NCBI GenBank assembly: GCA_963666275.2
Contig: CAXXOA010000003.1
Span: 160,001-224,000 of the forward strand
DNA length: 64,000 bases
Direction: 5' to 3'
Source of the DNA: Oceanispirochaeta sp.
GTDB lineage: Bacteria; Spirochaetota; Spirochaetia; DSM-2461
In this document: positions 24,178-44,112 of the stretch, piece after piece
Numbering within the stretch: position 1 is the first letter of the stretch
How the letters are laid out: the number at the start of each line of letters is the position of its first letter
The notes under the pieces: generated by a model
Told to the model about the DNA's origin: nothing
What the model saw: the letters and a program-made list of their open reading frames with translations, nothing else
Database searches by the model: none
Translations under genes and position numbers: made by a program

Positions 24178-24645
24178 TTATGCATTATCATATTTCTTCT
24201 GATAATAACTTTCATTACGGCCTTCATTTACATAAAATGCTGTAGTAAGAAAATATTTCTTCGGTATTTCTTTCAATATAATGAGATAGTGTCCTTTCTT
24301 ATACCAGAAATACGATTTATTTATCACCTTACCCCTTCTATCCATATCTAGTTCATTCCAAGTTAGAATCTCTGGATGAGCAGCATTCTCGATGATCGGT
24401 CTGAGCCAAGGTAGCCTTTTTGCTCTTTTAAAATCAATCAATCTTTCTTCTTTACCTCTCGTGACTACATGCCAGAAACCTTCTTCATAATCAGAGTCAA
24501 TTTTTCTGTTATCTACAATAATAGGTAAAGATTTGAAATATAAACGATTTTTGATTAAATCATTGAAAAATACATCATATAAAGAACTAATCATTTCTTC
24601 AAAGGTTGAATCGAGAACAAGTTTTTCAGGCAAAAAATCAAGCAT
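24178..24645 (-). CDS. Cassette 2 protein resembling phage P1 RlfB / BECR-fold ribonuclease
   Basis: EGFWHVVT, D..RAKRLPW.RPII, YLIIL, FLTTAFY pattern; coupled to a DUF3800 gene. Confidence 0.55.
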   Translation of the reverse strand: MLDFLPEKLVLDSTFEEMISSLYDVFFNDLIKNRLYFKSLPIIVDNRKIDSDYEEGFWHVVTRGKEERLIDFKRAKRLPWLRPIIENAAHPEILTWNELDMDRRGKVINKSYFWYKKGHYLIILKEIPKKYFLTTAFYVNEGRNESYYQKKYDNA

Positions 24646-24647
24646 GT

Positions 24648-25349
24648 TTATATTACCTTTGGAGAAAAATGAAAAAGGTTAAATTTCTGCTCCCAAGGAG
24701 GAGTTGTATATAAGATATTGTAACCAGATTTAGATTTCAAATACTCTGAAACATGTAATTTTGCGGGGCTTGATGACATCCCTTTGTTAATATATGTGAT
24801 CGCTCCCAATAAGAAATCACATAATTGCAATAAATTTGACTCATGAGATCTTATCTGTTGAATTCTGCAAACTTTTTCTTGATTAAAATCATAAAATTTA
24901 TTACTCAAGACATCATGTAACTTATGAACTTTTTGAAATCCTTTTGTATCCTTGATATCTACATATATTTCAAAGCAATCATCAGATTTAACTTCGATAA
25001 TATTTCTTAATAGTTCATAATACATTTTATAATAGAACGTATCATGATTACCATCATTATACTGTTCATGATCTAGATTTTCTTTATTATGTACGATCAA
25101 AGATCTAAAATGTAAATTCTGTTCAGAAAAAAATAAATCAATAAGTCTATAGTAGAAATCGATGTTTTTTATCGATACTTTTGTCCATTTCAATTCACCA
25201 TTACAGTTATGTTGATGTTTTAATGCTTTAATTTTTAAGGATAAATCTCTTACGTTTTCTCTTGGATATTGAATTGCACCAAGAGTCATTATTGGAATAT
25301 GGTCATTTAGAAGATGACAACTCTCATCACAATAAATATTTATATCCAA
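24648..25349 (-). CDS. Cassette 2 DUF3800 domain protein (RNase H-like; P1 RlfA-like)
   Basis: IYCDESCHL, ELKWTKVS, YYKMYY, IRSHES.LLQLCD; TTG start after GGAGGT. Confidence 0.85.
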   Translation of the reverse strand: MDINIYCDESCHLLNDHIPIMTLGAIQYPRENVRDLSLKIKALKHQHNCNGELKWTKVSIKNIDFYYRLIDLFFSEQNLHFRSLIVHNKENLDHEQYNDGNHDTFYYKMYYELLRNIIEVKSDDCFEIYVDIKDTKGFQKVHKLHDVLSNKFYDFNQEKVCRIQQIRSHESNLLQLCDFLLGAITYINKGMSSSPAKLHVSEYLKSKSGYNILYTTPPWEQKFNLFHFSPKVI

Positions 25350-29660: not shown

Positions 29661-29981
29661 TTAAGATGTGAGTCTATAATCCAGAATATGTGGTTCTCTT
29701 TCTAACAACTCTAATAATATTTTTGTTGAACCTGTGGGTGTTCGTTTTCCCTGTTCCCATTGCCTAACCGATGATGCACTTACATTGAGTAATTTCGCAA
29801 ATACTGCCTGACTAAGATGTATTGATTCTCGTATTTTCTTTATATCTTCTGCTGAAACATTTACTTCAGGTATGTTAATTCCCAGTGATTTTAATTCCTT
29901 GTCAGTGAAGGATGTGGGAAGACCTGCATCGATTAGATCTTGTACAGTTTCGGCAATAGAATCTTTTATTGAATCTCTCAT
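29661..29981 (-). CDS. XRE/HTH antitoxin (HigA-like)
   Basis: IKKIRE...SQAVFAKLLNVS..SVRQWEQGKRTP.G. Confidence 0.88.
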   Translation of the reverse strand: MRDSIKDSIAETVQDLIDAGLPTSFTDKELKSLGINIPEVNVSAEDIKKIRESIHLSQAVFAKLLNVSASSVRQWEQGKRTPTGSTKILLELLEREPHILDYRLTS

Positions 29982-29982
29982 A

Positions 29983-30351
29983 CTATTCCCCTATTATCTG
30001 CAAAGCATTATTTTTTATGGCAGTATCTAGTTGCTTATTGTTCAAATTTAATAAATCTTTGCCAATTTTCTTGAAATACTCCAATTCTTTACTGGAGATA
30101 TTATCCATTTCATTCTTCGAAAAACCATATATAAATACAGCTCTGTCATTTTCTTTAAAGACCAGAATTGTCCTGAAACCTCCACTTTTACCGGAACCTT
30201 TCCTGGCGATTCTGACTTTGAATATATTGGATCCGAGTTTGACCGATGATAAATCTGATTCAAGATTACCGATAGCATCCTGAAGATTCTTATCAGCAAT
30301 ATCATTCTTTTTCGCCCATTTGGTGAACCATTTAGTTTTCAGTTTCTTCAC
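29983..30351 (-). CDS. RelE/ParE family toxin (HigB-like, toxin-first)
   Basis: KTKWF.KWA, KVRIAR.G.GKSGGFR, FIYGFSKNE..NI. Confidence 0.88.
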   Translation of the reverse strand: MKKLKTKWFTKWAKKNDIADKNLQDAIGNLESDLSSVKLGSNIFKVRIARKGSGKSGGFRTILVFKENDRAVFIYGFSKNEMDNISSKELEYFKKIGKDLLNLNNKQLDTAIKNNALQIIGE

Positions 30352-30676: not shown

Positions 30677-30779
30677 GCTAGATAACGCCCGCATCAGCTG
30701 CAATTTTGTCCCGTAGGGTTGGCGACCTTATTGAGTATTCAAAAAGGGTGACAAAAAAATTGTCAGTTGCATGCGCTTG
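30677..30779 (-). repeat. attC site interrupted at its R'' core by intron 2
   Basis: GCTAGATAAC-gcccg-catcagctgcaatt...aattgtcagttgcatg-cgctt-G|TTATGTAT. Confidence 0.85.
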
Positions 30780-31385
30780 GTACGCCCGACATGGCAATAA
30801 ACTTATGAGGTGAAAGTCCTCTACAGCTACCCACGTATAGTAAACATGCTATACCAACTGTTAGCCGACGGCAAGGGCAATTCCGTGAGGAATTGTCTGG
30901 AGGAAGCCTGAGTGCAAAACCGGGAGCCCATGCACAAGAATGTGATAGAAGGCCCAGTTCCGGAGGCGAGTCAGCCAATGATGACGATGCCCCGTGGGTG
31001 AGGGATAGGGTAAATCACAGGGTTGTCCGGGGAATGTTTCTTGTCTTATTCGGGGAGATCTGTCTGCAAGGCGGTAACGTCGGTTTGACCGTGAGAATCC
31101 GGAGGATACCGGAGCAACAAGTCCAGGCCTATCAGGGGGTGACACTCTGATAAGGAGCCGTTTATACGGAACACAAAGAAGTCGTCACAGCGCTTCAAAC
31201 CGGATGATACAGCGTCAGCAGGAGTAATTCTACTGATAAGCGGACAGAAGTCAGCAGAAGGCATAGTAGCTAACGCCCGGAGTAATGTCCGGTTCATGGT
31301 GAAGGCCTGAACATTTCACAAGGAGGAGCCTTATGGTTCTCAAAGGAACAATTTCAGTTTATGCCGGAATCACTTTTGGCGGACC

Positions 31386-32732
31386 ATGGAGAAACCAGCC
31401 TTGAACGAATCTATGATGGATTTGATTTTATCCTCTGAGAATATGCACAAAGCCTGGAAACAGGTCAAACGCAATGGAGGTAGCCCTGGAATCGACGGTA
31501 TCACTGTCGAGAAGTTTCCAGGATATCTGAAAACCAGATGGCCTAGAATCAAACGAGCTTTGCTCAACGGGTACTATGTACCTTCTCCGGTGCTGAGGGT
31601 AGAAATCCCGAAGAAATCCGGAGGCTGGTCGCAAACAAGTTTGCTGCTCGCCCATGCAACCGGGGGAAAACGGATGCTGGGAATCCCGACAGTTCTAGAC
31701 AGGGTTATCCAGCAGGCTATTTCACAGGTTCTGAATCCCATATTTGATCCGGATTTCTCGGAGCATAGCTATGGATTCAGACCGGGAAGATCGGCTCACG
31801 GAGCAGTGAAACAGGTAAATCAACATGTCAAATCCGGGTATAGATACGCCGTGGATCTGGACTTGGAAAAGTTCTTTGATACAGTTAATCATGATATCCT
31901 GATGCATTTTGTGGCTGTAAAAGTCCGGGACAAATCTGTCCTCAGACTCATCGGCCGTTACCTGAGAGCCGGTATTCAGTTGGACAATGGAAAAGTGATT
32001 CCTACAGACATCGGCACACCCCAAGGCGGGCCCTTATCACCTCTGCTTTCCAATATCCTCCTTGATCGGTTGGATATGGAACTGGAGAGAAGAAATGTGA
32101 GGTTCGCACGGTATGCAGATGACACTATCCTTTTAACGAAGAGATTGTGTGATGCTAGGAAGATCCTACAGGAAGTTTCAATATTTCTGGTAAGGAAATT
32201 GAAATTGCTAGTGAATCAGGAGAAAACGAAAGTTGCAAAGATAAGGGAGTGCAGTTTCCTGGGATTCACATTCAAGGGTAAGAAGATTCGCTGGACAGAG
32301 TCGTCCTTTGAGGATTTTCGGTATCATCTGAAATATCTGACAAGGCGTTCCTGGGGTGTTTCCATGGAATACAGAATCGGGAAACTCAATGAGTATATCC
32401 GGGGCTGGATGAACTACTATGGGATCTCCCAATATTACAGCCCTATACAGAATCTTGATGACTGGCTCCGTAGGAGGATTCGCATGTGCTACTGGAAACA
32501 GTGGCGATATCCCAGAACGAAAGTCAGGAAACTGATGGAACTGGGAATTCCGAAAGATTTTGCCATTATCACCGGTGCCAGTAGTAAATCCTATTGGCAT
32601 CTCTCCAAGTCTTACGCTACCAATGCAGCTATGTCCAATAAATGGCTGGAAGAGCAGGGATTGGTCAATATCAAATATCTATGGTGTAAAGCCCAGGGAT
32701 ATATCGTAACCGTCAAAACTACAGGCCCTTGA
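31386..32732 (+). CDS. ltrA: Group II intron RT/maturase; last 8 aa derived from IS66 read-through
   Basis: Same motifs as intron 1 RT; IS inserted immediately before the native TGA. Confidence 0.93.
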   Translation: MEKPALNESMMDLILSSENMHKAWKQVKRNGGSPGIDGITVEKFPGYLKTRWPRIKRALLNGYYVPSPVLRVEIPKKSGGWSQTSLLLAHATGGKRMLGIPTVLDRVIQQAISQVLNPIFDPDFSEHSYGFRPGRSAHGAVKQVNQHVKSGYRYAVDLDLEKFFDTVNHDILMHFVAVKVRDKSVLRLIGRYLRAGIQLDNGKVIPTDIGTPQGGPLSPLLSNILLDRLDMELERRNVRFARYADDTILLTKRLCDARKILQEVSIFLVRKLKLLVNQEKTKVAKIRECSFLGFTFKGKKIRWTESSFEDFRYHLKYLTRRSWGVSMEYRIGKLNEYIRGWMNYYGISQYYSPIQNLDDWLRRRIRMCYWKQWRYPRTKVRKLMELGIPKDFAIITGASSKSYWHLSKSYATNAAMSNKWLEEQGLVNIKYLWCKAQGYIVTVKTTGP

Positions 32733-34260
32733 AAGCCCTTTTCTGAATAGCTTCCCGGTCACAGTTCCAGGGAAGCAGTTTTTCTTTGTCAAAATCATCT
32801 TCCATGACTGCGACCTGATCGAATATCCACCATAGATATCCATAGGGATTCAGATCATTCACTTTCGCCGTCTCAATCAAAGAGTAAAAGAGACTACTGG
32901 ATTTAGCACCCCTCGGAGATCCGGAGAACAGCCAGTTTTTCCGACCAACCACAAAAGGTTTAATCGCCCGTTCAGCGGCATTGTTATCCGGCGTCAGGTA
33001 GGGAGACTCAATAAAACGGACGATTTTCTCCCACTGGCCCAAGATATAGGCTATCGCTTTTCCCGTCGCCGTAGACGGCCTAACCTTTTCAGCCTTGTCA
33101 TCCAGCCAGGATTTGAGGTCATCCAGAAGCGGCTGAACCAGCTCTTTTCTCCTGTTCAAGAACTTCATATCATCCAAATGCTCATCCCGGAGATTACTTT
33201 CAATCCGGTAAATATCTCTGATTTTCTTTACAGCAATTTGAGCGCTTCCGGCTTTCTTTGAAGCCTTCGCGGCATCTACAAATTTCCGACGGGCATGTGC
33301 CAGACAACCGACATGAATGATATCTTCGTTGCCGTCCAGTGCCGTTTCATAAGCCTGATAGCCGTCAGTCTGGAGATATCCCGAATATCCCTCCAAAAAC
33401 GCCTTGGCATGCTGAGAACTTCTTGTTTCATGGTAGTCGTAGATCACAAGGGGTGAGTCCGGAGGCCCTCCCCGGGCAAGCCACATGTAGGATTTTGAGG
33501 TGTCCGGACGGTTTTCTTCTCCCAGAACCTGCACTGTGGTTTCATCCATCTGGATAACAGGGCCTTCTTTGATCTTCTTCCTAAACATATCCATAAGGAA
33601 TTGGAGCCTTTCTGCTGATTTATTTGTCCAATTGGACATGTCTTGGCGGCTGATATGAGCGCCGATACGCTCAAAGCGCTTCTCCTGCCTGTAAAACGGC
33701 AGATGATCACAGAACTTATTCACCAAGATAAAGGCTAAAAGCCCCGAAGTAACGATACTACCGGGAAGGATGGAAGGAGCCGCCGGGGCTACTCTGAAAA
33801 CCGGTTTGTCTTCATCACCGGAACCCTCACAGTTCCGGCAGGCATACTTGTAACGGATATGACGCTCCACGTATATCTGCTCGGGGATATGCTGAAGCCT
33901 TTCACTGACAATCTCATCAATCTTATCCAGTTGATGCCCGCAGCCGCAGATCTTTTCCTCTTCGGGAATGTCATGGATGATGTCCTCCCGGGGGATGTTG
34001 CTGTCCAAAGGCTTTCGTCCTGCCTTTGTTCGGCTATGTGCGGGAACTGTTATCTGATCATCTGCTGCGAATTCTTCCTCAGAAGGAGCCTCTTCTTCAA
34101 ACAGTTCCTTCTGGTTAGGATCGATTTTCTCGCTGGAACGTCCAAACTTGCGATGAAGAGCCAGGCGGAGTTCTTCTGTTAATTGCTCAATCTGACCAGA
34201 CATACTCTGGATGAGTTCAAGTGCTTTCTCTGGTGATTTTTGTATCTCCGCCAAGTCCAT
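32719..34260 (-). CDS. tnpC: IS66 transposase
   Basis: FGRSSEK, zinc finger, HLPFYRQ, MDET, GCLAHARRKF, DNNAAERAIK. Confidence 0.95.
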   Translation of the reverse strand: MDLAEIQKSPEKALELIQSMSGQIEQLTEELRLALHRKFGRSSEKIDPNQKELFEEEAPSEEEFAADDQITVPAHSRTKAGRKPLDSNIPREDIIHDIPEEEKICGCGHQLDKIDEIVSERLQHIPEQIYVERHIRYKYACRNCEGSGDEDKPVFRVAPAAPSILPGSIVTSGLLAFILVNKFCDHLPFYRQEKRFERIGAHISRQDMSNWTNKSAERLQFLMDMFRKKIKEGPVIQMDETTVQVLGEENRPDTSKSYMWLARGGPPDSPLVIYDYHETRSSQHAKAFLEGYSGYLQTDGYQAYETALDGNEDIIHVGCLAHARRKFVDAAKASKKAGSAQIAVKKIRDIYRIESNLRDEHLDDMKFLNRRKELVQPLLDDLKSWLDDKAEKVRPSTATGKAIAYILGQWEKIVRFIESPYLTPDNNAAERAIKPFVVGRKNWLFSGSPRGAKSSSLFYSLIETAKVNDLNPYGYLWWIFDQVAVMEDDFDKEKLLPWNCDREAIQKRAFKGL

Positions 34261-34301
34261 GAGAAAATTCTAACATGTTTGAATTCCATTGGGAAGATGG
34301 T

Positions 34302-34649
34302 TTAGACAATCTCTTCATAACTGAGAGTTTGATGAGTATGCCAGAAGTCAATACCTTCCAGGAGCATTTTCAACTGTTCCTGGGATATCTGCCTGGCTTG
34401 CTCTTCTGAATCCGGCCAGGGGTATTTTCCTTTTTCCAGGCGCTTCTGCCAGAGACAGAATCCGTTGCGATCCCAGTAAATGCACTTTATCAGCTTGCGG
34501 TCCCGGCTGCAAAAGAGGAAAAGGCAACCGGAACCAGGGTTAAGTTCCATTTCCTCCTGGGTGATAATGGATAAACCATTGACCTGTTTCCGCATATCGG
34601 TGATACCAGGTCTGACGTAGATTTGAATGCTGGTAAAATCCGGAATCAT
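34302..34649 (-). CDS. tnpB: IS66 accessory protein
   Basis: TDMRK..NGL, FLFC, YWD.NGF.LWQKRLE. Confidence 0.95.
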   Translation of the reverse strand: MIPDFTSIQIYVRPGITDMRKQVNGLSIITQEEMELNPGSGCLFLFCSRDRKLIKCIYWDRNGFCLWQKRLEKGKYPWPDSEEQARQISQEQLKMLLEGIDFWHTHQTLSYEEIV

Positions 34650-34984
34650 TTTAGGATCTCTTTTAAATCGGCGACAAGACGAATCAGCGAATGAGAATCG
34701 TAATCTGATGGAATATTGATCTTATGCCCGGAGGGGTATTCGATTGAAAATGGGCTTCCTGTAGACGCCTTCAAAACTACTGGAATCCTCACAAGCCCTT
34801 TTTCCTTCTCTACTGCTGATTCCTTGCGGATTTTCATTCTCCAATAGTCGAAGGTTGAAACGGGGATGCTATTCTTCAGGCAGAACTCTGTTCGGTTTAA
34901 ACTGCTCTTCTCCCATTCATTGATTTTTCGTTTCCAAATGTCTTTTTTTTCCATGCAGTAAATCTCCTTGTAGAAATTGTGCAT
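34646..34984 (-). CDS. tnpA: IS66 accessory HTH protein
   Basis: W..S.L...EFC....I..STF.YW. Confidence 0.85.
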   Translation of the reverse strand: MHNFYKEIYCMEKKDIWKRKINEWEKSSLNRTEFCLKNSIPVSTFDYWRMKIRKESAVEKEKGLVRIPVVLKASTGSPFSIEYPSGHKINIPSDYDSHSLIRLVADLKEILK

Positions 34985-35218
34985 GGAATTCAGATTACAT
35001 CGTAGGGCATAAGAAATTGACGGTTACGATATATCTGATCAAATCAGGATTTCGTTTGCTCCATGGAGTGAACCGCCCCGTGCGGACCCGCATGCGGGGT
35101 GGTGTGGGGGCTGGAGGTTAAAAGCCTCCGGCTACCCGATTTATGTATTTCTTTTTGGGAATCTCATTATTTGCATGTCTCACCCCTCATTTTTGGGTAA
35201 GATTTTGGAGTTATTTCA

Positions 35219-35830
35219 TCAGACTCCTTTGCTACTTAAGATAAATTCACAAATTTCATTATCATTCAGCATCTTATCTCGGTCGATTAATTTTATAGTT
35301 TCTGTTTTTGTAAAATAACTCTGTTTGATACTTTTCTGATTTTCGAAAACTTTAAGATACCCATTGTTAATGTCATCCCAATTCAATGTTTTTTCATAAA
35401 AAGAATTATCTTTACTAGCAAAAGGCCTACTTCTTGTCATTATGCAAATTGTCACATCATACTTGTCTTGCAGTTTTGAATAAAGCCTATGATGTATATC
35501 ATATATAAGCGATAACTCGAATTCATCTAAACCTGAAAGTTCCCCATAAATTAATGCGGAGATATAGCTACGATCCATTACTATATTAGTATCTGAATAA
35601 AGCATTGTTTCGTATAGATCAACGGTATGAGATATTGTGTGAAGAAGTTGCCGTTCAAATGGTGATATTGAAGTTTTTCCCTTTACAATACCACGTAGAA
35701 AACCTAGAGTATTACTTGCGCTTGGTTGCTGAAGAATAGAGGCATTTATCATTGTTGATAGTTGTTTAGAAATTGTAGATTTACCAAGATTATCGGCAGA
35801 TTCTAAAATCACTAGTTTATGTTTATCCAC
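35219..35830 (-). CDS. Thymidylate/deoxynucleoside-monophosphate kinase-like protein
   Basis: LVILESADNLGKST P-loop, ERQLL, VMDRSY.S.L.YG; GTG start 35830 overlapping the upstream stop. Confidence 0.8.
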   Translation of the reverse strand: MDKHKLVILESADNLGKSTISKQLSTMINASILQQPSASNTLGFLRGIVKGKTSISPFERQLLHTISHTVDLYETMLYSDTNIVMDRSYISALIYGELSGLDEFELSLIYDIHHRLYSKLQDKYDVTICIMTRSRPFASKDNSFYEKTLNWDDINNGYLKVFENQKSIKQSYFTKTETIKLIDRDKMLNDNEICEFILSSKGV

Positions 35831-37847
35831 CGTTCTTGCCCTCCACTCCTTTAATACCTTGTAGAATGAGTAAAATAATCTCATCAATAAACTTACTATT
35901 GAAAAGTATTCGGTTTTCCTCTTCTGAAAGTCCATTGTTTTCTGAAAGACCTGCGATTCCAATATTACTTATTTCTTGTACAATTGATTCATAGCTAATA
36001 TCTTTCTCTTCTGAATCTAACTCAAATAAGTCACTAATTTCTTTGTAGCCAGCGTTATGATGTAATTGCCACTCTTTTGTTAATTCTTCAGGAATAGTAC
36101 CACTTACTAATAATTCACATACCTTGGATGTAACACCTCCAAAACCTCCAAGCAAATACAATGGTTTTTTTTCTCTTAAAGAAATAATTATTTCCTCGAA
36201 AACACCAGGATACTTACCCTTGTAACCAGAAAAGCGACCTCCTGCAGAAATTCGATAATTGCACTGCCCAATCATTTCTTTACGCATCTTAGTTAAACAT
36301 AGACTCCATGCAAAGCAGTTTATCGCACCGACAGGACGTAGAAATATTTCTTTATCATGGTTTTTCTGGACTTTTTCTGATGGCTCAACCTTAATAATTT
36401 TTACCACCTTATTATTTTTTGCATTCCAATCCAAAGTAGGTTCATCAATATTTGTGTAAATAGGCCATGCTAAATAATTTTGAATTTTTGGCGTGGATGC
36501 CTGTAATCGATCTTGCACAACTTTTGCCTCTTCGCAAAGAAATTCTGAAAATCCTCCTGGACGAAGATCACCACCATAAACAACAGTAGCATCTCGAAAA
36601 AGTAAATGGCGTGCAATAGTTTGAGATAGAGAAATCAAATGTTTATTAGTTTGCCCAATATTTAGCAATTCCTCAGGTTCAGGATCTGATATAGATATTC
36701 CTATCGAAATTCCAGCAAAGGCTTTTAACTCCAATGTAAGGGGAGTACAAGCAATAATTCCTAATGGTTCAATACATTTATGCTCTATTCCATATACTGG
36801 AGGATCGGGATAAATGATTTTTGAGAACTTAGAATATATTGAGTCTCCGGAATTTGAAAGTAAATTGGTTATGTCAGACAATTCTGGAGGTCGGACCAAT
36901 AACATCGTTGATCCGTCATCATGTATACTTAATAAATCTTTGTAATAATTGATTTTTAGTGTTTCGAGTAGTGCGGTCTCAAGAATAGTATGTATATCAA
37001 GCTCAGAGATAGGTAAGCTAGAGTCTAAATGAACAGATGGTACATTGACAGAATGTGGAAATGCTCGATCTTCGTTTACTTTTAAATAGTTCACAACGAT
37101 TATTGGGAGACTATTCTCTTTGGCTATTAATATCTCTTTTTGACACCAATATCTCATAGAATAATTATCAGATTGAATTGAAATCAATGTGGAATCTTTT
37201 ACGGAATTTTCAATTTCATCTTCAAAATCATGAGAAATATGGATATCATATGCATCGTAAAAACGATGCATTAACGTATTATCAATAAATGATTTTAGTG
37301 ATTTAGCCGTTTCAACGGCCCAATCATCGTATTTCGTATGACTTAAAAATAACTTTATAGCACTATCATTACCTGGAATGTTTCCACCGTTAGAAAAAGC
37401 AAATCGATAGATTTCGTGAGTTGCTGAAATGAAAAACTGTTGGGTAATATATTGTTTGTCAAAGTCATAAAGCCTTATAAAATTTAACTTTTCATATTTC
37501 TTATTCAACCCAAATCCGAATTCTGAGTTAATAGCAATTGGAATAACTTGTTGGTCATCAACGGAAAGAAATGTGTCATAATAAGCTCTCCAATCAACAT
37601 TCCCAGTCACATACTTGTTGGAGAAACAAAAAATTATAGTTTTTTTTGCTTTTGAATCAATTCTTTTGGGTATAGCATTGTCATTCGAAGTTCGAAAGAA
37701 TACAGGAAGATTCATACTTCTAGAAAATGGTCTTGAAATATCTTTTTGAAATCTGTCAAAACAATACTCTACTAAAGGCTTTACAATAGCTTCATCAGCT
37801 GAATGCCAAACAAAATAGATTGCAAGTGGCTGCCTAAAAATTTGCAT
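35823..37847 (-). CDS. TIR-SLOG fusion protein (N-terminal TIR-like region, central TIR, C-terminal SLOG)
   Basis: KLFLSHTK.D...RYWCQKEI (TIR with catalytic Glu); VYGGDLRPGGF, LTKMRKEM, AGGR..GY.GKYPGVFEE, PLYLLGGFGG (SLOG). Confidence 0.82.
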   Translation of the reverse strand: MQIFRQPLAIYFVWHSADEAIVKPLVEYCFDRFQKDISRPFSRSMNLPVFFRTSNDNAIPKRIDSKAKKTIIFCFSNKYVTGNVDWRAYYDTFLSVDDQQVIPIAINSEFGFGLNKKYEKLNFIRLYDFDKQYITQQFFISATHEIYRFAFSNGGNIPGNDSAIKLFLSHTKYDDWAVETAKSLKSFIDNTLMHRFYDAYDIHISHDFEDEIENSVKDSTLISIQSDNYSMRYWCQKEILIAKENSLPIIVVNYLKVNEDRAFPHSVNVPSVHLDSSLPISELDIHTILETALLETLKINYYKDLLSIHDDGSTMLLVRPPELSDITNLLSNSGDSIYSKFSKIIYPDPPVYGIEHKCIEPLGIIACTPLTLELKAFAGISIGISISDPEPEELLNIGQTNKHLISLSQTIARHLLFRDATVVYGGDLRPGGFSEFLCEEAKVVQDRLQASTPKIQNYLAWPIYTNIDEPTLDWNAKNNKVVKIIKVEPSEKVQKNHDKEIFLRPVGAINCFAWSLCLTKMRKEMIGQCNYRISAGGRFSGYKGKYPGVFEEIIISLREKKPLYLLGGFGGVTSKVCELLVSGTIPEELTKEWQLHHNAGYKEISDLFELDSEEKDISYESIVQEISNIGIAGLSENNGLSEEENRILFNSKFIDEIILLILQGIKGVEGKNGG

Positions 37848-38435
37848 TTAATAACTCCACTTTGTTTGAGACTCTGATCGATTATTAGCAAATGACGGAT
37901 AACTGTTATCTGGAATATCAATTTTTCGTCTATTAAAAGCATCATCTATCCAATTTTGCACTATATATGGATTAATATCCCAATTATATATTTTTGCGTA
38001 GCCGCACTTTATATTATCATATAAGCGAGGTGGAATAGTGAAGGGGTTATATTGACCACCATTCTCACAACTTTTGTTTTCCCATGAATACTCACAATTA
38101 TAGGATGGTAAGAGTATTCCTATTAACCCTGTACGACTATTATACTGGGTTTTCCTGATACTAGAGGAAATTTCCCAGTCTACATGTTTTCTTTTCCACG
38201 TATCTTTACCAATCAAGACAATAGCAACTGTAGCGTCTTTTATAAATTTATCGCGTATTTGCTGACGTATAGTGTCGGTTTGCAATAAAGGGTTAATATC
38301 TCCTTCTTCAACTGATTTTGATATAAATCCATCAAATGAATTCGTGAATTTTTGAATAAATTGCTTTTTATAAGATTCATCATTTTTATGATGATAACTT
38401 ATGAATACTTTGTGTTTTTTTATCATTACATCCAC
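37848..38435 (-). CDS. ThsB-like TIR domain protein
   Basis: HKVFISYHH.ND, D.IRQ.IRD, VLIG..TW.RKHVDWEI.SS, PPRL.DN. Confidence 0.88.
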   Translation of the reverse strand: MDVMIKKHKVFISYHHKNDESYKKQFIQKFTNSFDGFISKSVEEGDINPLLQTDTIRQQIRDKFIKDATVAIVLIGKDTWKRKHVDWEISSSIRKTQYNSRTGLIGILLPSYNCEYSWENKSCENGGQYNPFTIPPRLYDNIKCGYAKIYNWDINPYIVQNWIDDAFNRRKIDIPDNSYPSFANNRSESQTKWSY

Positions 38436-39062
38436 CTATGATTGACCATCATATCTAATAAATTTCTCTTCTTGAAACATGGAAGGGAATCCAATTAGCC
38501 CATTATTATAGTTCTGTTGAATATATTCTAAAATTTGCAATGCGATCTTTTCATCCACATATCTGTGTCCTGGACCTCTTTTGCAAAGTTTTGTTGAAAT
38601 TTTTAATGGTATTTCAAACGCATCTTTCCCAAAGTAATAGAAATGACTTGAGATTAGTACCATGTCAGTAGTTGAAGTGTCTCGTTTCAAATTATGCTGA
38701 TTTATTTCGCCATTTTCGAGACTATGATGAGAATTATCTTGATGCCAATCACCATCATTTTTTTGGTGATATATATTGTCTCCATACATTTTCTTCAGAC
38801 TGCCATTCATCACCGGTTTTTTGTATTGAAAATCTGGATTTTTGTAGTATTCATTAAATGTCATTTTGGCCGTTACTTGCATAGTATAAATCAACCTAGG
38901 CGATTGTTGGTGTATGATGGATGATGTGCCAAATATCCAGTCGCCTATTTTTGCACTCTTTCTAATACTCGGCTTACAAGTTGCTAAAGTGCAATGTTTT
39001 CCAAATGGATTGGGTGCAAAACCAAAATCTCGAGGTATAACATATGAATAATACATAGCCAT
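38436..39062 (-). CDS. Nucleotide modification associated domain 2 (Nmad2)-like protein
   Basis: YSYV..RD.GFAPNPF...CTLATCKP.IR..A..GDWI.G, GDNIY, VLIS..FYYFG. Confidence 0.75.
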   Translation of the reverse strand: MAMYYSYVIPRDFGFAPNPFGKHCTLATCKPSIRKSAKIGDWIFGTSSIIHQQSPRLIYTMQVTAKMTFNEYYKNPDFQYKKPVMNGSLKKMYGDNIYHQKNDGDWHQDNSHHSLENGEINQHNLKRDTSTTDMVLISSHFYYFGKDAFEIPLKISTKLCKRGPGHRYVDEKIALQILEYIQQNYNNGLIGFPSMFQEEKFIRYDGQS

Positions 39063-39532
39063 TAACAATTGCTCCTGCCAATCCCATATCTACTTTGCCA
39101 AGGGCCATTCCCTTCAGAATTATCAAAGTCATTGCAAATTCCGTTTATTGCATCAATAATTTTTCCTGAATTCCACCCTACTAAAGCATCTCCAAATTTC
39201 TGGAAAGATTCTGGGACATCGGAATCCTTTGCTCCTTGCATAAAAACTCCTACAATAGGCTTTCCTTGTTTTGCTGCCTGCTCAATTTCCCAATTAACCC
39301 ATTCTCTAGTATGCGTTTGCGGACCGATCAAGACAACTGTTGTTCCCGCCCAACTTATTCCATCTCTCAATAATCCTTTAATGTATTCAGGGTTTTTTGC
39401 ATCATTAGGCTTTGTGCTATCAATTGAACTATTCCTCAGAGTATAACCTTTATCGCCGAGCATCTTCTTTAAAGCTTGAACGCTTTCATCATCCTTTCCA
39501 TAATGGCTGATAAACACATTTTTATTCTTCAT
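39062..39532 (-). CDS. ThsB-like (MTH538-type) TIR domain protein
   Basis: NVFISH..KD, ISWAGTTVVLIG..TH.REWVNWEIE.A...GK.IVGV. Confidence 0.88.
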   Translation of the reverse strand: MKNKNVFISHYGKDDESVQALKKMLGDKGYTLRNSSIDSTKPNDAKNPEYIKGLLRDGISWAGTTVVLIGPQTHTREWVNWEIEQAAKQGKPIVGVFMQGAKDSDVPESFQKFGDALVGWNSGKIIDAINGICNDFDNSEGNGPWQSRYGIGRSNC

Positions 39533-40152
39533 CAATATCCTCCTTTCAAGAATAAAGAATTTAATGATGGATTGTGAAACTTTATACCATTTTGCTTATG
39601 CGTTTTTGAATACAATGCAAGAGCCCAATCATGAAGGAAATCATTTTCAGATTCAAAAAATTCTTCAGATTCTCGCATCCTAATAGATTTTTCCCATTCT
39701 TCAAGTTTTTTTAATTGTTGATCAAAAGATGTTAGCGACTCAAATTTACTTTTGTACACATATGATTCATTTGAGCATGAAACCACTTTGCTTAAAGATA
39801 CTATCTTTTCTCTAAATTCTTCATAATAATGAAGATTATTTGTGATATGGTAATAAGAGCCAATTTCATAACCCAAAATTCCAGCAAAATATTCTAGCAT
39901 GAACATGTTATTAAACATATTAATACCAGTTGCACCCCAAAGAAAATCATTAGATCTCATATGAACATAAAGATTTAGCTTTCCTTGAACATCTCGAATA
40001 AACTGGATAGATCTAGTGCATGGGAAATCTTTTGTCTCCTTGATTATACCATTATTAAAACAATCTTTGACTGGATCACCTATATCAATTATTGCCTGTC
40101 TTGTGAACGCATCACGTTTAAAAGACTCAATTACATAACTAAACTGTAAGCG

Positions 40153-41724
40153 TCAAATAAACACAGGCCCTTTATCAGCCGTAATGTTATCTTTTAAATT
40201 CCATGGTAATAATTCTTCCCATTCTTGTTCATTATTGATGAACGGAGCTTTAGAGAAAACATAATGCAGATAATCAAAGGGATTCAAATTATTTTGTTTT
40301 GCAGTCTCAATCAGAGAATACATCCCGCAGGAACTGTCTGCCCCTTTGGGATTCCCGGAAAATAGCCAGTTTTTCCTCCCCAGAACAAAAGGACGAATAG
40401 CATTTTCACTGCCATTATTATCCGGAGTCAGATAAGGACTTTCCAGATATCGGATCAAATAATCCCATTGATTCAATGCATAATGAACAGCCTTACCTAA
40501 AGCACTTTCAGGTAAAACATTTTCAGCCCTTTTATCCAACCATTGTTTAAATTTTTCAAGAATGGGTTCGGCCTTGCTTTTCCGTTGTTCCTGGAACTCT
40601 TCAGGAGATAATTTCTTACTCCTTAGATCATTTTCCAAGGCATAGAGCTTCTTGATATGCTTGATTCCTTCCAGAGCACTTTTAGATTTTTTACTGGCTT
40701 TATCAGCCTCAAAGAACTTCCTTCTGGCATGTGCAAAGCAGCCTACCAGATGTATATCGGGATTGCCTTCTACCGCGGTTTTGTATCCTTGATATCCATC
40801 GGTTTGCAGATACCCTTTAAAACTAGTGAGAAAATTCTTTGCATATTCCGATGCCCGTGTTGGATGGTACTCATAATAAACAGCTTGTTGTCCCGGAGGA
40901 CCGCCTCTGGACAGCCACATATAGGATTTCTGTTTGTTATCCCGACCTGGTTCATTCAGAACCTGTACGGTTGTTTCATCCATTTGGATCACCGGACCGG
41001 ATTTTATGTGGGTTTTCAGCAGTTCAAAGAGAGGGAGAAGAGCTTCATAAGCCTTTTTCTGCCAATTACTCATATTCTGACGGCTGATTCGGGCTCCCAT
41101 ACGCTCAAACCGCTTTTCCTGTCGGTAAAAAGGAAGATGGTCCACGTACTTGTTTACCATCAGAAATGCCAACAGACCGGGAGTGACAATCCCTTTGGGG
41201 ATGATGGAAGGCTCCGGAGGGGCAATCTTTACAGCAGGAACATCTTCATCGGCGGTTCCTTCGCAATTACCACAGGCATATTTTAACCGGACAATCCGTT
41301 CTACCCAGATACGGGGAGGGATCACATGCAGTTTCTCAGAGATTTCTTCTCCGATTTTTTTCAGTTCTGTTCCGCAGGCACAGTTTTTTTCATCTTCAGG
41401 AATATCAATAATCCGTTCTTTGCGGGGAAGGTTCTCATCCAGAGGCTTTCTGCCTGTTTTCTTACGCTTGTAAGAATCTATTTGCTGTTCTTCCGAACAG
41501 TCTTCCTCAGGAGTCTGTGGTTCATCAGAATCAAATAATTCAATCTGATCAGGGATATTTTCTGCTCTTCGACCGAATTGACGATGCAATGCCAAGGCCA
41601 ACTTCTCTTCAAGAAGCTGATATTTCTTTTCCCAGTTCTGATTCTGGGCTTCTGATTCAGCAAGTTGCTTTTTCAGAGATAAAAATTCTTTTTGTGCTTC
41701 CAACGGAAGAGAGGAAATATCCAT
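40153..41724 (-). CDS. tnpC: IS66 transposase
   Basis: HLPFYRQ, MDET, GCFAHARRKF, DNNGSENAIR. Confidence 0.95.
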   Translation of the reverse strand: MDISSLPLEAQKEFLSLKKQLAESEAQNQNWEKKYQLLEEKLALALHRQFGRRAENIPDQIELFDSDEPQTPEEDCSEEQQIDSYKRKKTGRKPLDENLPRKERIIDIPEDEKNCACGTELKKIGEEISEKLHVIPPRIWVERIVRLKYACGNCEGTADEDVPAVKIAPPEPSIIPKGIVTPGLLAFLMVNKYVDHLPFYRQEKRFERMGARISRQNMSNWQKKAYEALLPLFELLKTHIKSGPVIQMDETTVQVLNEPGRDNKQKSYMWLSRGGPPGQQAVYYEYHPTRASEYAKNFLTSFKGYLQTDGYQGYKTAVEGNPDIHLVGCFAHARRKFFEADKASKKSKSALEGIKHIKKLYALENDLRSKKLSPEEFQEQRKSKAEPILEKFKQWLDKRAENVLPESALGKAVHYALNQWDYLIRYLESPYLTPDNNGSENAIRPFVLGRKNWLFSGNPKGADSSCGMYSLIETAKQNNLNPFDYLHYVFSKAPFINNEQEWEELLPWNLKDNITADKGPVFI

Positions 41725-41765
41725 AAGAGAATTTTAACAAAGACTGGAATTTGAGTAAATTCCTT

Positions 41766-42113
41766 TCAGGCAATTTCTGAATATTTCAATGTTTCGTGGG
41801 CTTTCCAGAAGTCTATACCCTTCAGAAGCATAGAGAGTTCTTCAAAGCTGATGGCTTTAGCAGCTTCTTCCGTATCTGGCCAGGGGAAGCGGTGCTTCTC
41901 CAGACGCTTCTGCCAGAGGCAGAAGCCTGTCTGATCCCAGTAAAGGGCTTTCAGAATCCGTCTCTGTTTATTACAGAACATAAAAAGAGAGCCGCAAAAA
42001 GGATCAAGAGACATTTCATCCTGAACTTCTACCGCCAAACCATTAATAGCTTTCCGCATATCGGTAACACCGGGTCGGATAAATATCTTGATTTGAGAGA
42101 AATCCTTAATCAT
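41766..42113 (-). CDS. tnpB: IS66 accessory protein
   Basis: TDMRKAINGL, LYWDQTGFCLWQKRLE. Confidence 0.95.
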   Translation of the reverse strand: MIKDFSQIKIFIRPGVTDMRKAINGLAVEVQDEMSLDPFCGSLFMFCNKQRRILKALYWDQTGFCLWQKRLEKHRFPWPDTEEAAKAISFEELSMLLKGIDFWKAHETLKYSEIA

Positions 42114-42408
42114 TGCACTGTACCAGGGTCTGAAGCAGTTTTTTCAATGTGATTGTATCAAAGTTCCGATCCAGTTTTATCCGGTAGGCATTCCATTGTA
42201 ACTCAATGGATGAGCCTTTGACTGTTTCCTTGGGCAATTTAACAGGAACTTCAACCAAGGATGGAGTTTTACGGTCATACCGCTTTTGCCATCCGTGGAA
42301 AGTCGTTGTTTTCAGTTTTTTATCCCGGCAGAACTGACTTACAGATTTTCCGGACTGTTTCCACTCTGCCAAAAGAGCGTAGCGCTGATCCATTGTGTAT
42401 TGTTTCAT
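42106..42408 (-). CDS. tnpA: IS66 accessory HTH protein
   Basis: WKQSGKSVSQFCR....TTFHGW. Confidence 0.88.
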   Translation of the reverse strand: MKQYTMDQRYALLAEWKQSGKSVSQFCRDKKLKTTTFHGWQKRYDRKTPSLVEVPVKLPKETVKGSSIELQWNAYRIKLDRNFDTITLKKLLQTLVQCND

Positions 42409-42880
42409 AGTAATTCTCCTGATGGAGATTGTACCGGGATGACTTGGAGATTTTTAGATGCGGTTTATTTGACGCTTACACTAAACTGATCGATTATATC
42501 CTGAGCACTATTATTTTGAGTATAACCAATCTGATAATCTGTATTTTCACCATTAAATTTTCGAAAACGTGGACCATATCCTGCTCTCATCCAGATACCA
42601 TCATCTGAAAACTGTTTTAAATTATTGCAATAGTAAGAGCTCATTTCAATGTCATTTCTACCAGCAGCTAGCCATAGAGACTCTGCAAATGGTAGATATT
42701 TATTCCATTCTCTTTCGGGTACAGTAATGATTCTTGCACAAGGATTTGATATTTGTACAATGATAGGTTCAGGTAATTCGTAACAAACTTTCCCACGAGT
42801 CGCTCGCTTTACACCTTCTTTCAGAAGAACTGCTGACATTTTTACAAGAAACTCATTTAAACTATCGTATTTAAATTTTG

Positions 42881-43861
42881 TTACATCCATTCGTTCACCT
42901 GGGGATAGTTAAGATTCCATTTTGGTGGAAAAAATAAATCTATCTTTGTTTGATTTATTTTAAATTTCTGTTTAATTCTTTTATTACCTACAGATAATTC
43001 TGGTAATTTTACTCGAAGGAATTTATCTGTTTCACAAAAACAATTTTGAAGATCAATGAGAGTAGGTTCTCTTCCAAATAAATTATTAAAATAATAGCCA
43101 TACTTTTCTCTATATTTTTCAATATTATCAGCTGTGTAACGAATTGCATCCTCGTAACTATAACCATCAAGATCAGAAAAGCACTTCTTTATACCACGGA
43201 TTGCACCAATTCCAGCTTTTACAAATGAATTCTCATCAAAATCAAATACATCAGAATAATTGAGGTCAATTGCGTATTGGTATGCTAAAAATGGACCTAT
43301 AAATGAACACTTAATAAGTATTTCGTACAGCTCTTTTAATGTTTTACACTTTAGCATCTTGTTAATTACTGGTGTATCAATAATTTCTGTTTTAAGCATT
43401 TGAAGCCATTTCTCATGCTTATAAAAATACCCTTTAGTATAGTTTCGGTGTGTACCTGTCATCAAATATGCTGCACTGAATATTGGACGATTCTTAATCC
43501 TTTCACTCAGGATATTCGATATTTCAGTAATATTGAAATTCTGAGTTGTGATAAATCCTAAATTATGCTCAATAAATTCCCAAGTATCGATTCTGTTGAA
43601 AATTTTAAAAAGAAGAATACGTAGAATTGTATCTTGAGCAGAAAAGTTACCCTTAGGAGAATAAATTACTTGGCGAACAAGATATTGACTAACCCGATCG
43701 CAAACACGATATACATTTGTAAATTTATACTCTGATAAAATGGGATCTGTAGTCAGATTGTTAAATTGATTGCAGGTTTCATTGTATCTATGCCAGAATA
43801 TATTCATTCGTTCTTGCATGAAATAAAAATAGTATTGAAATGCTTCATCACGAATCTTCAT
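42881..43861 (-). CDS. 5-hmdU DNA kinase-like / aGPT-Pplase1-family DNA base hypermodification protein
   Basis: ERMNIFW.R, T.DPIL..YKFTNVYR..DRVSQY, LFKIFN, IGPFLAYQY.IDLNYS, G.GA.RG, D.QNCFCE.DK; ATG 43861 after AGGA. Confidence 0.78.
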   Translation of the reverse strand: MKIRDEAFQYYFYFMQERMNIFWHRYNETCNQFNNLTTDPILSEYKFTNVYRVCDRVSQYLVRQVIYSPKGNFSAQDTILRILLFKIFNRIDTWEFIEHNLGFITTQNFNITEISNILSERIKNRPIFSAAYLMTGTHRNYTKGYFYKHEKWLQMLKTEIIDTPVINKMLKCKTLKELYEILIKCSFIGPFLAYQYAIDLNYSDVFDFDENSFVKAGIGAIRGIKKCFSDLDGYSYEDAIRYTADNIEKYREKYGYYFNNLFGREPTLIDLQNCFCETDKFLRVKLPELSVGNKRIKQKFKINQTKIDLFFPPKWNLNYPQVNEWM

Positions 43862-43934: not shown

Positions 43935-44112
43935 ATACATAACTATCTGATCACCTGCGGCCCGGCCTGGCCGAAGGACAGGTATTGGCGTTCTTCTTGC
44001 CAACATGGTAAAACATCTTTACCATATTGAGAAGCGATTATTTACTATTGAGTGGGAATATCAGCAAGAAGTATGACAATAGGGGTGACTGGTGCATCAG
44101 CATGTTATGTGA
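43935..44112 (-). repeat. attC site (intact, long)
   Basis: Top strand AAC-atgct-gatGcaccagTc ... gcaggtgatc-agata-GTT. Confidence 0.8.

Follow-up and report, generated by a model that had tools for sequence, protein, structure and literature searches.

The seven-gene locus

We analysed a stretch of 64,000 nucleotides from Oceanispirochaeta sp. (contig CAXXOA010000003.1, positions 160,001 to 224,000; hereafter the window), in which positions 35219 to 43861 carry genes for nucleotide and DNA modification enzymes, two short TIR proteins, the predicted modified-base reader Nmad2 and a TIR-SLOG fusion. An earlier note, made from the letters of the window alone, had proposed these seven genes as a novel anti-phage system. 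All of them lie on the minus strand in the order that it described, except that the thymidylate synthase (TS)-family gene is split by an IS66 insertion sequence (IS); the abutting or overlapping junctions that it reported are present once this IS66 (40146-42479) is taken out, and not in the sequence as it stands. The operon contains the following features:

42881..43861, minus strand: gene 1, PF18723 (aGPT-Pplase1 or 'HMUDK_hel'), M6 gp55 family (Pfam E 3e-83)
39532..42890, minus strand: gene 2, TS family, whole span including IS66; placed by homology in the dUMP hydroxymethylase clade
42488..42890, minus strand: 5' part of gene 2, TS family; intact orthologue in metagenome contig L081 (85%)
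40146..42479, minus strand: IS66 inside gene 2, with an 8-bp target duplication
39532..40145, minus strand: 3' part of gene 2, with the catalytic Pro-Cys and the RSND..WG..G.N motif
39062..39535, minus strand: TIR1, ThsB-like, Nmad2-linked clade (PF08937, 2.7e-23)
38436..39062, minus strand: Nmad2, PUA-like YTH/EVE/ASCH fold, predicted modified-base reader (PF18753, 9.9e-71)
37848..38435, minus strand: TIR2, ThsB-like, of a clade other than that of TIR1 (2.5e-19)
35823..37847, minus strand: TIR-SLOG, TIR_2 plus SLOG cluster2 (PF13676, 2.6e-08; PF18163, 3.3e-68)
35219..35830, minus strand: thymidylate-kinase-like P-loop kinase (PF02223, 2e-05, below cut-off)

The GC content per gene across this stretch is 30-39%, compared with 48% for the genome. 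A promoter scan of the locus stayed at chance level, and PADLOC 2023 has no model for gene 1, gene 2 or Nmad2. The absence of SIR2, macro and transmembrane effectors that the earlier note had pointed out was reproduced, as none was matched among the seven proteins in Pfam/PADLOC-type profile searches.

One integron cassette

All seven genes form one integron cassette, 6,554 bp long without intron and IS, which lies between two attC sites. Its boundaries are as follows:

43937..44110, minus strand: attC of the upstream cassette; the seven-gene cassette (start 43942) opens with its R' end
35141..35146, minus strand: R'' box belonging to the attC of this cassette, 72 bases past the kinase stop
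30780..35140, plus strand: group II intron in the bottom strand of the cassette's attC, itself broken by a second IS66
30680..30779, minus strand: rest of the cassette's own attC, ending in R' ahead of a RelE/HigA-type cassette

The first site spans 174 bp and its plus (bottom) strand folds at -35.5 kcal/mol (z -6.0), with paired ends and bulged bases; the two halves of the cassette's own attC, when joined, give 106 bp folding at -22.9 kcal/mol (z -6.2). These values come from a fold-based test that replaced a first attC scoring, which did not beat shuffled sequences (7 candidates vs 2-12). The operon begins 81 bases beyond the 174-bp attC, and there is no room for an internal attC because the genes abut. 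In both the seven-gene cassette and the neighbouring RelE/HigA-type cassette, R'' is complementary to the start of its own cassette, although such complementarity alone is weak evidence, the start word being the most frequent of all in the arrays.

Group IIC-attC introns are reported to insert into the bottom strands of attC sites, opposite to the cassette genes (PMC3001079, in the part available). In this genome, 10/11 intron 5' ends follow G and 15/17 3' ends precede TT, a pattern that is the signature of such insertion, and the window itself holds two copies of the same intron. An integron integrase is also encoded (TIGR02249, 390 bits, cut-off 265), on contig C1 and away from this array, where it adjoins an array in which low-GC genes on the minus strand alternate with open reading frames (ORFs) of group II introns on the plus strand.

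These boundaries, which the earlier note had missed, make the seven genes one mobile unit, and its view of them as a unit holds here in that sense. Crude scans gave no attC around the related operons in L081, L050, L001 and L052, so that cassette status applies to this genome only. In the portion of a RefSeq survey that we could draw on, 783 DefenseFinder-detected systems were located in integron cassettes and none had more than two components (bioRxiv 10.1101/2024.07.02.601686). The locus resembles such integron-borne defences in having defence genes in a cassette array beside toxin-antitoxin cassettes, and differs in holding seven genes in 6.55 kb. An integron is thus able to carry a seven-gene system, far above the one or two genes reported in that portion of the survey.

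Interruption by IS66 and intact alleles

The IS66 element in the TS gene is 2,334 bp long and has 11 copies in the genome. Restoring the empty site in silico gives an open frame of 338 codons with Pro-Cys at 176 and RSND at 198, the two motifs that had been read from the letters. The empty site is crossed by contigs of two other sequencing runs, X4 (joint 40137 to 42480) and X6, which differ from the window by few letters per piece, X4 being from another study; one X4 contig also links the kinase to TIR-SLOG. Although no single X4 or X6 contig covers the whole seven-gene form, these junctions indicate that the intact form very probably exists in nature. Among relatives, L081 lacks only the kinase and has the other six genes, with an unbroken TS, in unchanged order and 76-88% identical, and the Vibrio nigripulchritudo locus L050 has six genes including the kinase and lacks TIR2. 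Because IS66 inactivates TS, module A (the modification enzymes with TIR1 and Nmad2) is probably silent in this genome; TIR2 and TIR-SLOG may still work.

Modification enzymes

Compared through its intact L081 orthologue, the TS-family protein is closest to SPO1 gp29, annotated as a dUMP hydroxymethylase; the two are 38% identical over 250 columns and agree in motif spacing and in the Asn. Its best phage matches are SPO1-like gp29 proteins, it is 30% identical to M6 gp58, and its best solved relative is a CMP hydroxymethylase. Homology thus places it in the clade of dUMP hydroxymethylases, the putative function given in the earlier note.

Gene 1 had been taken for a 5-hydroxymethyldeoxyuridine (hmdU) DNA kinase. 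This function is given by its Pfam label alone, and the protein is a homologue of M6 gp55 (23%, E 2e-15). Proven hmdU DNA kinases are P-loop proteins such as M6 gp54 (PF18748), and the transferase is gp51 (PF18724), according to the accessible part of the M6 study (PMC8989533). PF18748 had no match among the seven proteins, with M6 gp54 as a control at 65 bits; a genome-wide search for it, run without a positive control, was blank. Likewise, the PF18724 transferase and a PLP enzyme had no Pfam match among these proteins. The kinase profile reached only E 0.06 against M6 gp54, the kinase being thymidylate-kinase-like and not gp54-like; nine of the 160 loci described below encode a member of its clade fused to PF18723.

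The predicted structure of gene 1 (pLDDT 92) resembles queuine-salvage glycosylases, the PaMx11 transferase gp46 and HhH glycosylases. For PaMx11 gp46, the fold comparison gave Z 10.4 and rmsd 4.3 over 228 aligned residues and the language-model feature likeness was 0.92, with no PF18724 Pfam match. Cys276-Glu277 is invariant in 34/34 aligned sequences, the motif is found in 63/69 PF18723 family members, and this pair recalls the essential Cys and Glu of amino acid:DNA transferases.

Phage thymidine hypermodification (M6, ViI, phiW-14 and SP10; PMC8989533, in part) therefore shares with this locus a TS of the dUMP hydroxymethylase clade and a gp55 homologue, whereas the locus has no PF18748, PF18724 or PLP enzyme, is bacterial and is coupled to TIR genes. 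The term 'hypermodification core' used for these enzymes was overstated, given the two unmatched families and a gene 1 that belongs to the family of the dispensable gp55. Judged by sequence, the locus plausibly makes hydroxymethyl-dU nucleotides, yet no complete hypermodification pathway is present. It also offers a candidate role for PF18723, a family without shown activity and with a misleading Pfam name.

Nmad2 and its partner TIR1

The Nmad2 model (pLDDT 90) had 21 structural matches at Z of at least 5, all of them YTH, EVE, ASCH or related PUA-like domains. The best reached Z 8.3 (rmsd 3.5-3.6, 113-127 aligned), and the neighbours include the modified-DNA-binding McrB, THYN1 and VcaM4I. 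The proposal that Nmad2 may read a modified nucleotide is therefore borne out at the level of its modelled YTH/EVE-like fold. Its residues Cys24, Cys29, His112 and His113 are kept in 37/37 close homologues.

TIR1 lies immediately 5' of Nmad2 in 112/115 cases, the remaining three being contig edges; by this gene neighbourhood, it is an obligate Nmad2 partner. The catalytic Glu of all three TIR domains is kept, as had been claimed: E83 of TIR1 is invariant (42/42), TIR2 has HVDWE, and E238 of the fusion is invariant in 40/40. A C-terminal Cys is found in all 112 Nmad2-adjacent TIRs vs 26/80 TIR2-class proteins, and our guess is that this Cys and the Cys/His residues of Nmad2 share a metal site. 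Both short TIRs match ThsB in PADLOC (4.5e-54 and 3.9e-11). A tree was built from random draws of 22 out of 105 Nmad2-adjacent and 22 out of 72 other short TIRs, to which five named TIRs were added. In it, a 100/100 branch sets the Nmad2-adjacent TIRs, with TIR1 and the TIR of the E. coli loci described below among them, apart from the rest. If this clade is indeed switched by a modified-base reader, TIR signalling would gain a new kind of input.

TIR-SLOG and comparison with Thoeris

The TIR-SLOG protein comprises an N-terminal domain without family name (~1-155), TIR_2 (167-253, with E238) and SLOG cluster2 (378-648); elsewhere, it is split into two genes. The N-terminal domain had no profile match to TIR sets or ThcB4, while its Atlas features point towards clusters that contain TIR domains (0.91, shared counts low). 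A second, divergent TIR-SLOG family of 613 aa occurs between Nmad2 and kinase/PF18723/TS genes in L147, L148, L156 and L157, and a 1,726-aa protein with TIR-SLOG similarity (L159:3343-8523) lies directly 5' of TIR1-Nmad2.

Like type I Thoeris (ThsB plus SIR2-SLOG ThsA), the locus has ThsB-like TIRs and a SLOG domain; unlike it, the locus lacks SIR2 and its SLOG is cluster2, not STALD. No SIR2/STALD match and no ThsA model match was obtained among the seven proteins. The covered part of a Thoeris survey (bioRxiv 10.64898/2025.12.03.692087) describes several TIRs and a SLOG protein without SIR2 in type III (ThcA SLOG plus ThcB TIRs), and the locus shares this layout. However, its SLOG is cluster2 rather than cluster3 and is fused to a long TIR. 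The SLOG half had no match to ThcA (NF058525, SLOG cluster3; control L143 227 bits, cut-off 110), and TIR-SLOG scored 25.7 bits against ThcB4 (NF058526), confined to the TIR domain and far from the cut-off of 220 (control L122 358.8). True type III Thoeris genes adjoin module A at other loci. Neither Nmad nor thymidylate is mentioned in the covered text of the survey, whose supplements may list this TIR-SLOG class.

Relationship to DS-4

The closest described system is DS-4 (working id NTTI), an E. coli system found with DefensePredictor and validated (Science 2026; PMC13092281, in the part available), which consists of TS, dNMP kinase, PF18723, TIR and Nmad2. The one row found there reports protection against lambda, with a -log efficiency of plating (EOP) of 0.93 and smaller plaques. 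Five of the seven gene types of the locus are thus common to DS-4, and in both a ThsB-like TIR is directly followed by Nmad2. L168, an E. coli locus with the gene order of DS-4 and near-identical gene lengths, was used for comparison: identities to the present locus are 28.5% for TS (E 6e-26), 30.8% for PF18723, 43.5% for TIR and 53% for Nmad2, and the DS-4-like TIR falls in the clade of TIR1. On the other hand, the present locus adds TIR2 and TIR-SLOG inside the operon and differs in gene order. Its kinase is TMK-like, below cut-offs, whereas that of the DS-4-like E. coli loci is PF21448, with no BLAST match between them; a conjugative element carries the E. coli loci and an integron cassette the genes here, and TS is broken here.

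Because five of seven gene types match published DS-4, the locus is not categorically new, contrary to the earlier claim of a novel system. What is new is the combination of a DS-4-type module with a TIR/SLOG-cluster2 module without name, packed as one integron cassette in which TS is disabled here. The YTH/EVE-like fold and constant TIR partner of Nmad2, and the SLOG effectors of three kinds next to DS-4-type modules, are likewise new. A literature search gave no text joining Nmad2, TS and SLOG, the likely comparative-genomics papers being outside its reach, and the paper on E. coli TIR-I to IX has no SLOG or thymidylate term in its text and no matching accession in its supplements. This neighbourhood may already be depicted in Iyer 2013, Burroughs 2015 and van den Berg 2024, which reportedly cover aGPT-Pplase1/Nmad2, the association of TIR with SLOG, and type III Thoeris.

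The DS-4-like pair was present in 16 of 5,426 complete E. coli genomes. Each of these 16 also has an operon for two short TIRs, a TIR of 397 aa and a SLOG cluster2 protein of 272 aa, and the latter two together match the window TIR-SLOG end to end (24% and 31%). In all three of the 16 that were viewed, the SLOG operon lies on the conjugative element, 1.6-2.4 kb from Nmad2. Since SLOG effectors of three kinds adjoin the module, including these 16/16 genomes, DS-4 may have been tested without its effector, a suggestion based on genomes with the DS-4-like pair and not on the tested strain. A missing SLOG partner, if true, would explain the weak protection by DS-4 (about one log, one phage), and the cassette would be a compact natural version in which sensor, enzymes and effector are transcribed together from a single 6.55-kb unit.

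Proposed mechanism

An anti-phage role of the cassette, as proposed in the earlier note, is highly likely considering its DS-4 homology, ThsB-type TIRs and cassette context. From the observed gene content, folds, residues, co-occurrence and boundaries, we infer, as a tentative best model, a two-module mobile anti-phage cassette with Thoeris-like logic, in which the enzymes would make a modified-uracil mark, Nmad2-TIR1 would sense it, a SLOG-gated TIR would give the output and TIR2 would be a parallel sensor. In module A, which is of DS-4 type, the TS-like enzyme would produce 5-hydroxymethyl-dUMP and the kinase would push it towards the triphosphate. During infection, hydroxymethyluracil (hmU) would enter the fastest-replicating DNA, that is, the DNA of the phage, where gene 1 may modify the base via its conserved Cys-Glu. 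Nmad2 on the modified base would then activate its fixed partner TIR1. In module B, an ADPR-type signal from TIR would bind the SLOG domain of TIR-SLOG, and the signal-bound protein would turn toxic, in the simplest case because its central TIR depletes NAD+; TIR2 may be a second, independent sensor onto the same SLOG. In a broader form, which we regard as possible but doubtful, the trigger would be a DNA base made by the cell itself: hydroxymethyluracil chemistry borrowed from phages would mark phage DNA, a YTH/EVE-like reader with its TIR clade would sense the mark and interchangeable SLOG effectors would execute, DS-4 being the sensor half and the whole circuit being mobilised here as one cassette.

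The same enzymes, from phage hypermodification lineages, and the reader fold that Nmad2 shares with modification-dependent restriction enzymes (VcaM4I, McrB) also fit a guard function, in which low-level modified thymine in host DNA or decoy enzymes would be watched and Nmad2-TIR1 would fire on loss of the mark, on its release by host-DNA breakdown or on hmdU phages. We consider this very unlikely. The sole DS-4 target listed in the available part of the report is lambda, and this genome is viable with broken TS and intact TIR1-Nmad2; provided that the cassette is expressed, the cell thus survives without the TS product. Lambda DNA is unmodified, and for this reason the suggestion that the system detects hmdU phage DNA fits poorly.

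Occurrence in other genomes and metagenomes

A genome scan for TIR-SLOG was blank with a single-sequence query and gave 362 loci with an alignment query. From these we took the best 80, and from metagenomes the best 80 of at least 533 loci with Nmad2, both samples being biased to close relatives of the window proteins; 49 and 24 of them, respectively, were well flanked (more than 4 kb on each side). In the 80 TIR-SLOG loci, Nmad2 was present in 34, PF18723 in 15 and TS in 11, and in the 80 Nmad2 loci TIR1 was present in 77, PF18723 in 58 and TS in 44. PF18723, TS, TIR1, Nmad2 and fused TIR-SLOG occurred together in 14/160 loci (two apparently the same sequence), which answers the question of co-occurrence elsewhere raised by the earlier note. 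Among the well-flanked TIR-SLOG loci, 22 had both Nmad2 and modification enzymes, 26 had neither, one had Nmad2 only and none had the enzymes only; after clustering (one member per cluster, some clusters mixed), 7 of 19 had both and 12 neither. The genes are accessory, patchy DNA, as Nmad2 is present in 3/401 genomes of the phylum, and SLOG cluster2 and PF18723 each in 2/38 of the order, own genome counted.

These neighbourhoods bear on whether the cassette is one circuit or two independent defence systems, namely a self-contained DS-4 (with TIR1 as effector, or hmdU poisoning phage replication) and a TIR2/TIR-SLOG system. Each module is found without the other, the two are on opposite strands in E. 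coli, L024 and L043, DS-4 works alone (as far as its report was available), and the distances of PF18723 and TIR-SLOG correlate weakly (rho 0.32, n=20). However, a SLOG module lies within 6 kb of Nmad2 in 15/24 well-flanked loci (11/19 after the same kind of clustering), and its partners are of three unrelated types: five of this TIR-SLOG family (fused or split), six type III ThcB4+ThcA and four SIR2-SLOG ThsA. In addition, the Nmad2/TIR-SLOG distances correlate with rho 0.67 (n=40, kin not independent), the kinase sits after TIR-SLOG both here and in L050, and many loci are TIR1-Nmad2-TIR-SLOG without a second short TIR. Two separate systems therefore appear rather unlikely to us, and the two-module circuit remains our preferred model.

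The enzyme partners vary among loci. They are swapped for uracil-centred enzymes (MazG-C plus UDG, dCTP deaminase, radical SAM), and Nmad1 also belongs to the variable set. Since TS and the dNMP-type kinase work on free nucleotides, MazG-C and dCTP deaminase are pool enzymes too and no hmdU DNA kinase was matched in the locus, a free modified nucleotide (hm-dUMP, or its di- or triphosphate) bound by Nmad2 or SLOG might instead be the alarm. Signalling by base-modified nucleotides is known from Kongming. Nevertheless, PF18723, the most constant partner (23/24 well-flanked Nmad2 loci), has a DNA-glycosylase/DNA-transferase-like fold, and the structural neighbours of Nmad2 bind bases within DNA or RNA polymers; a free-nucleotide alarm is thus unlikely, and a mark in DNA is retained in our model.

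Several points weigh against the two-module model. At its chemical end, the substrate of gene 1 is unclear because the locus has no hmdU DNA kinase; its Cys-Glu spacing was absent from M6 gp51 in a pattern search, and gp55 was dispensable in the M6 reconstitution, at least in the part of that study available (PMC8989533). Constitutive hmdUMP synthesis would mark host DNA too, with no regulator identified. As for the sensor, Foldseek gave no Nmad2 match at E 0.001 or better, and the Z of 8.3 for its model comes close to values that a common arrangement can produce. With regard to the coupling, 26/49 well-flanked TIR-SLOG loci lack module A, 9/24 well-flanked Nmad2 loci have no SLOG gene, and two loci of the same phylum lack TIR-SLOG (one stops at a contig edge); an obligate single functional unit, as the earlier note had argued, does not agree with these counts. 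Moreover, one conjugative element in two variants accounts for all 16 E. coli cases, its SLOG operon being read from the other strand, and DS-4 was protective without a SLOG gene in the cloned unit (PMC13092281, in part).

Some further variants were observed. TIR1-Nmad2-(TIR2)-TIR-SLOG-MazG_C-UDG without TS or PF18723 was found in 10/49 well-flanked TIR-SLOG loci (L013, L015, L057-L059, L062, L064, L065 and others). In 19 loci and the E. coli elements, TIR1-Nmad2 or the TIR/SLOG operon has as neighbour a gene of a 160-250 aa family without Pfam/PADLOC match (for example L086:7252-7869, L151:9714-10421 and L168:15678-16406). In eight loci, a protein of 500 aa that shows HD-like motifs and lacks a Pfam match is encoded among the module A genes (such as L138:6998-8506 and L105:10650-12158).

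Other features of the integron arrays

The surrounding region of the window (~22,600-45,000) is an integron cassette array read on the minus strand, with no adjacent integrase. It contains a RelE/HigA-type toxin-antitoxin cassette (29661-30351), a DUF3800 pair (24178-25349) and short low-GC genes, as well as mobile DNA in the form of two attC-inserted group II introns, an IS3 and three IS66 copies. The 174-bp attC at 43937-44110 is long and has two 94% copies (G000:C3:277864 and C2:1169806), each near more intron copies. The integron with IntI at G000:C1:1,032,000-1,064,700 has seven successive attC sites, each apparently with a group II intron, an unusually dense invasion.

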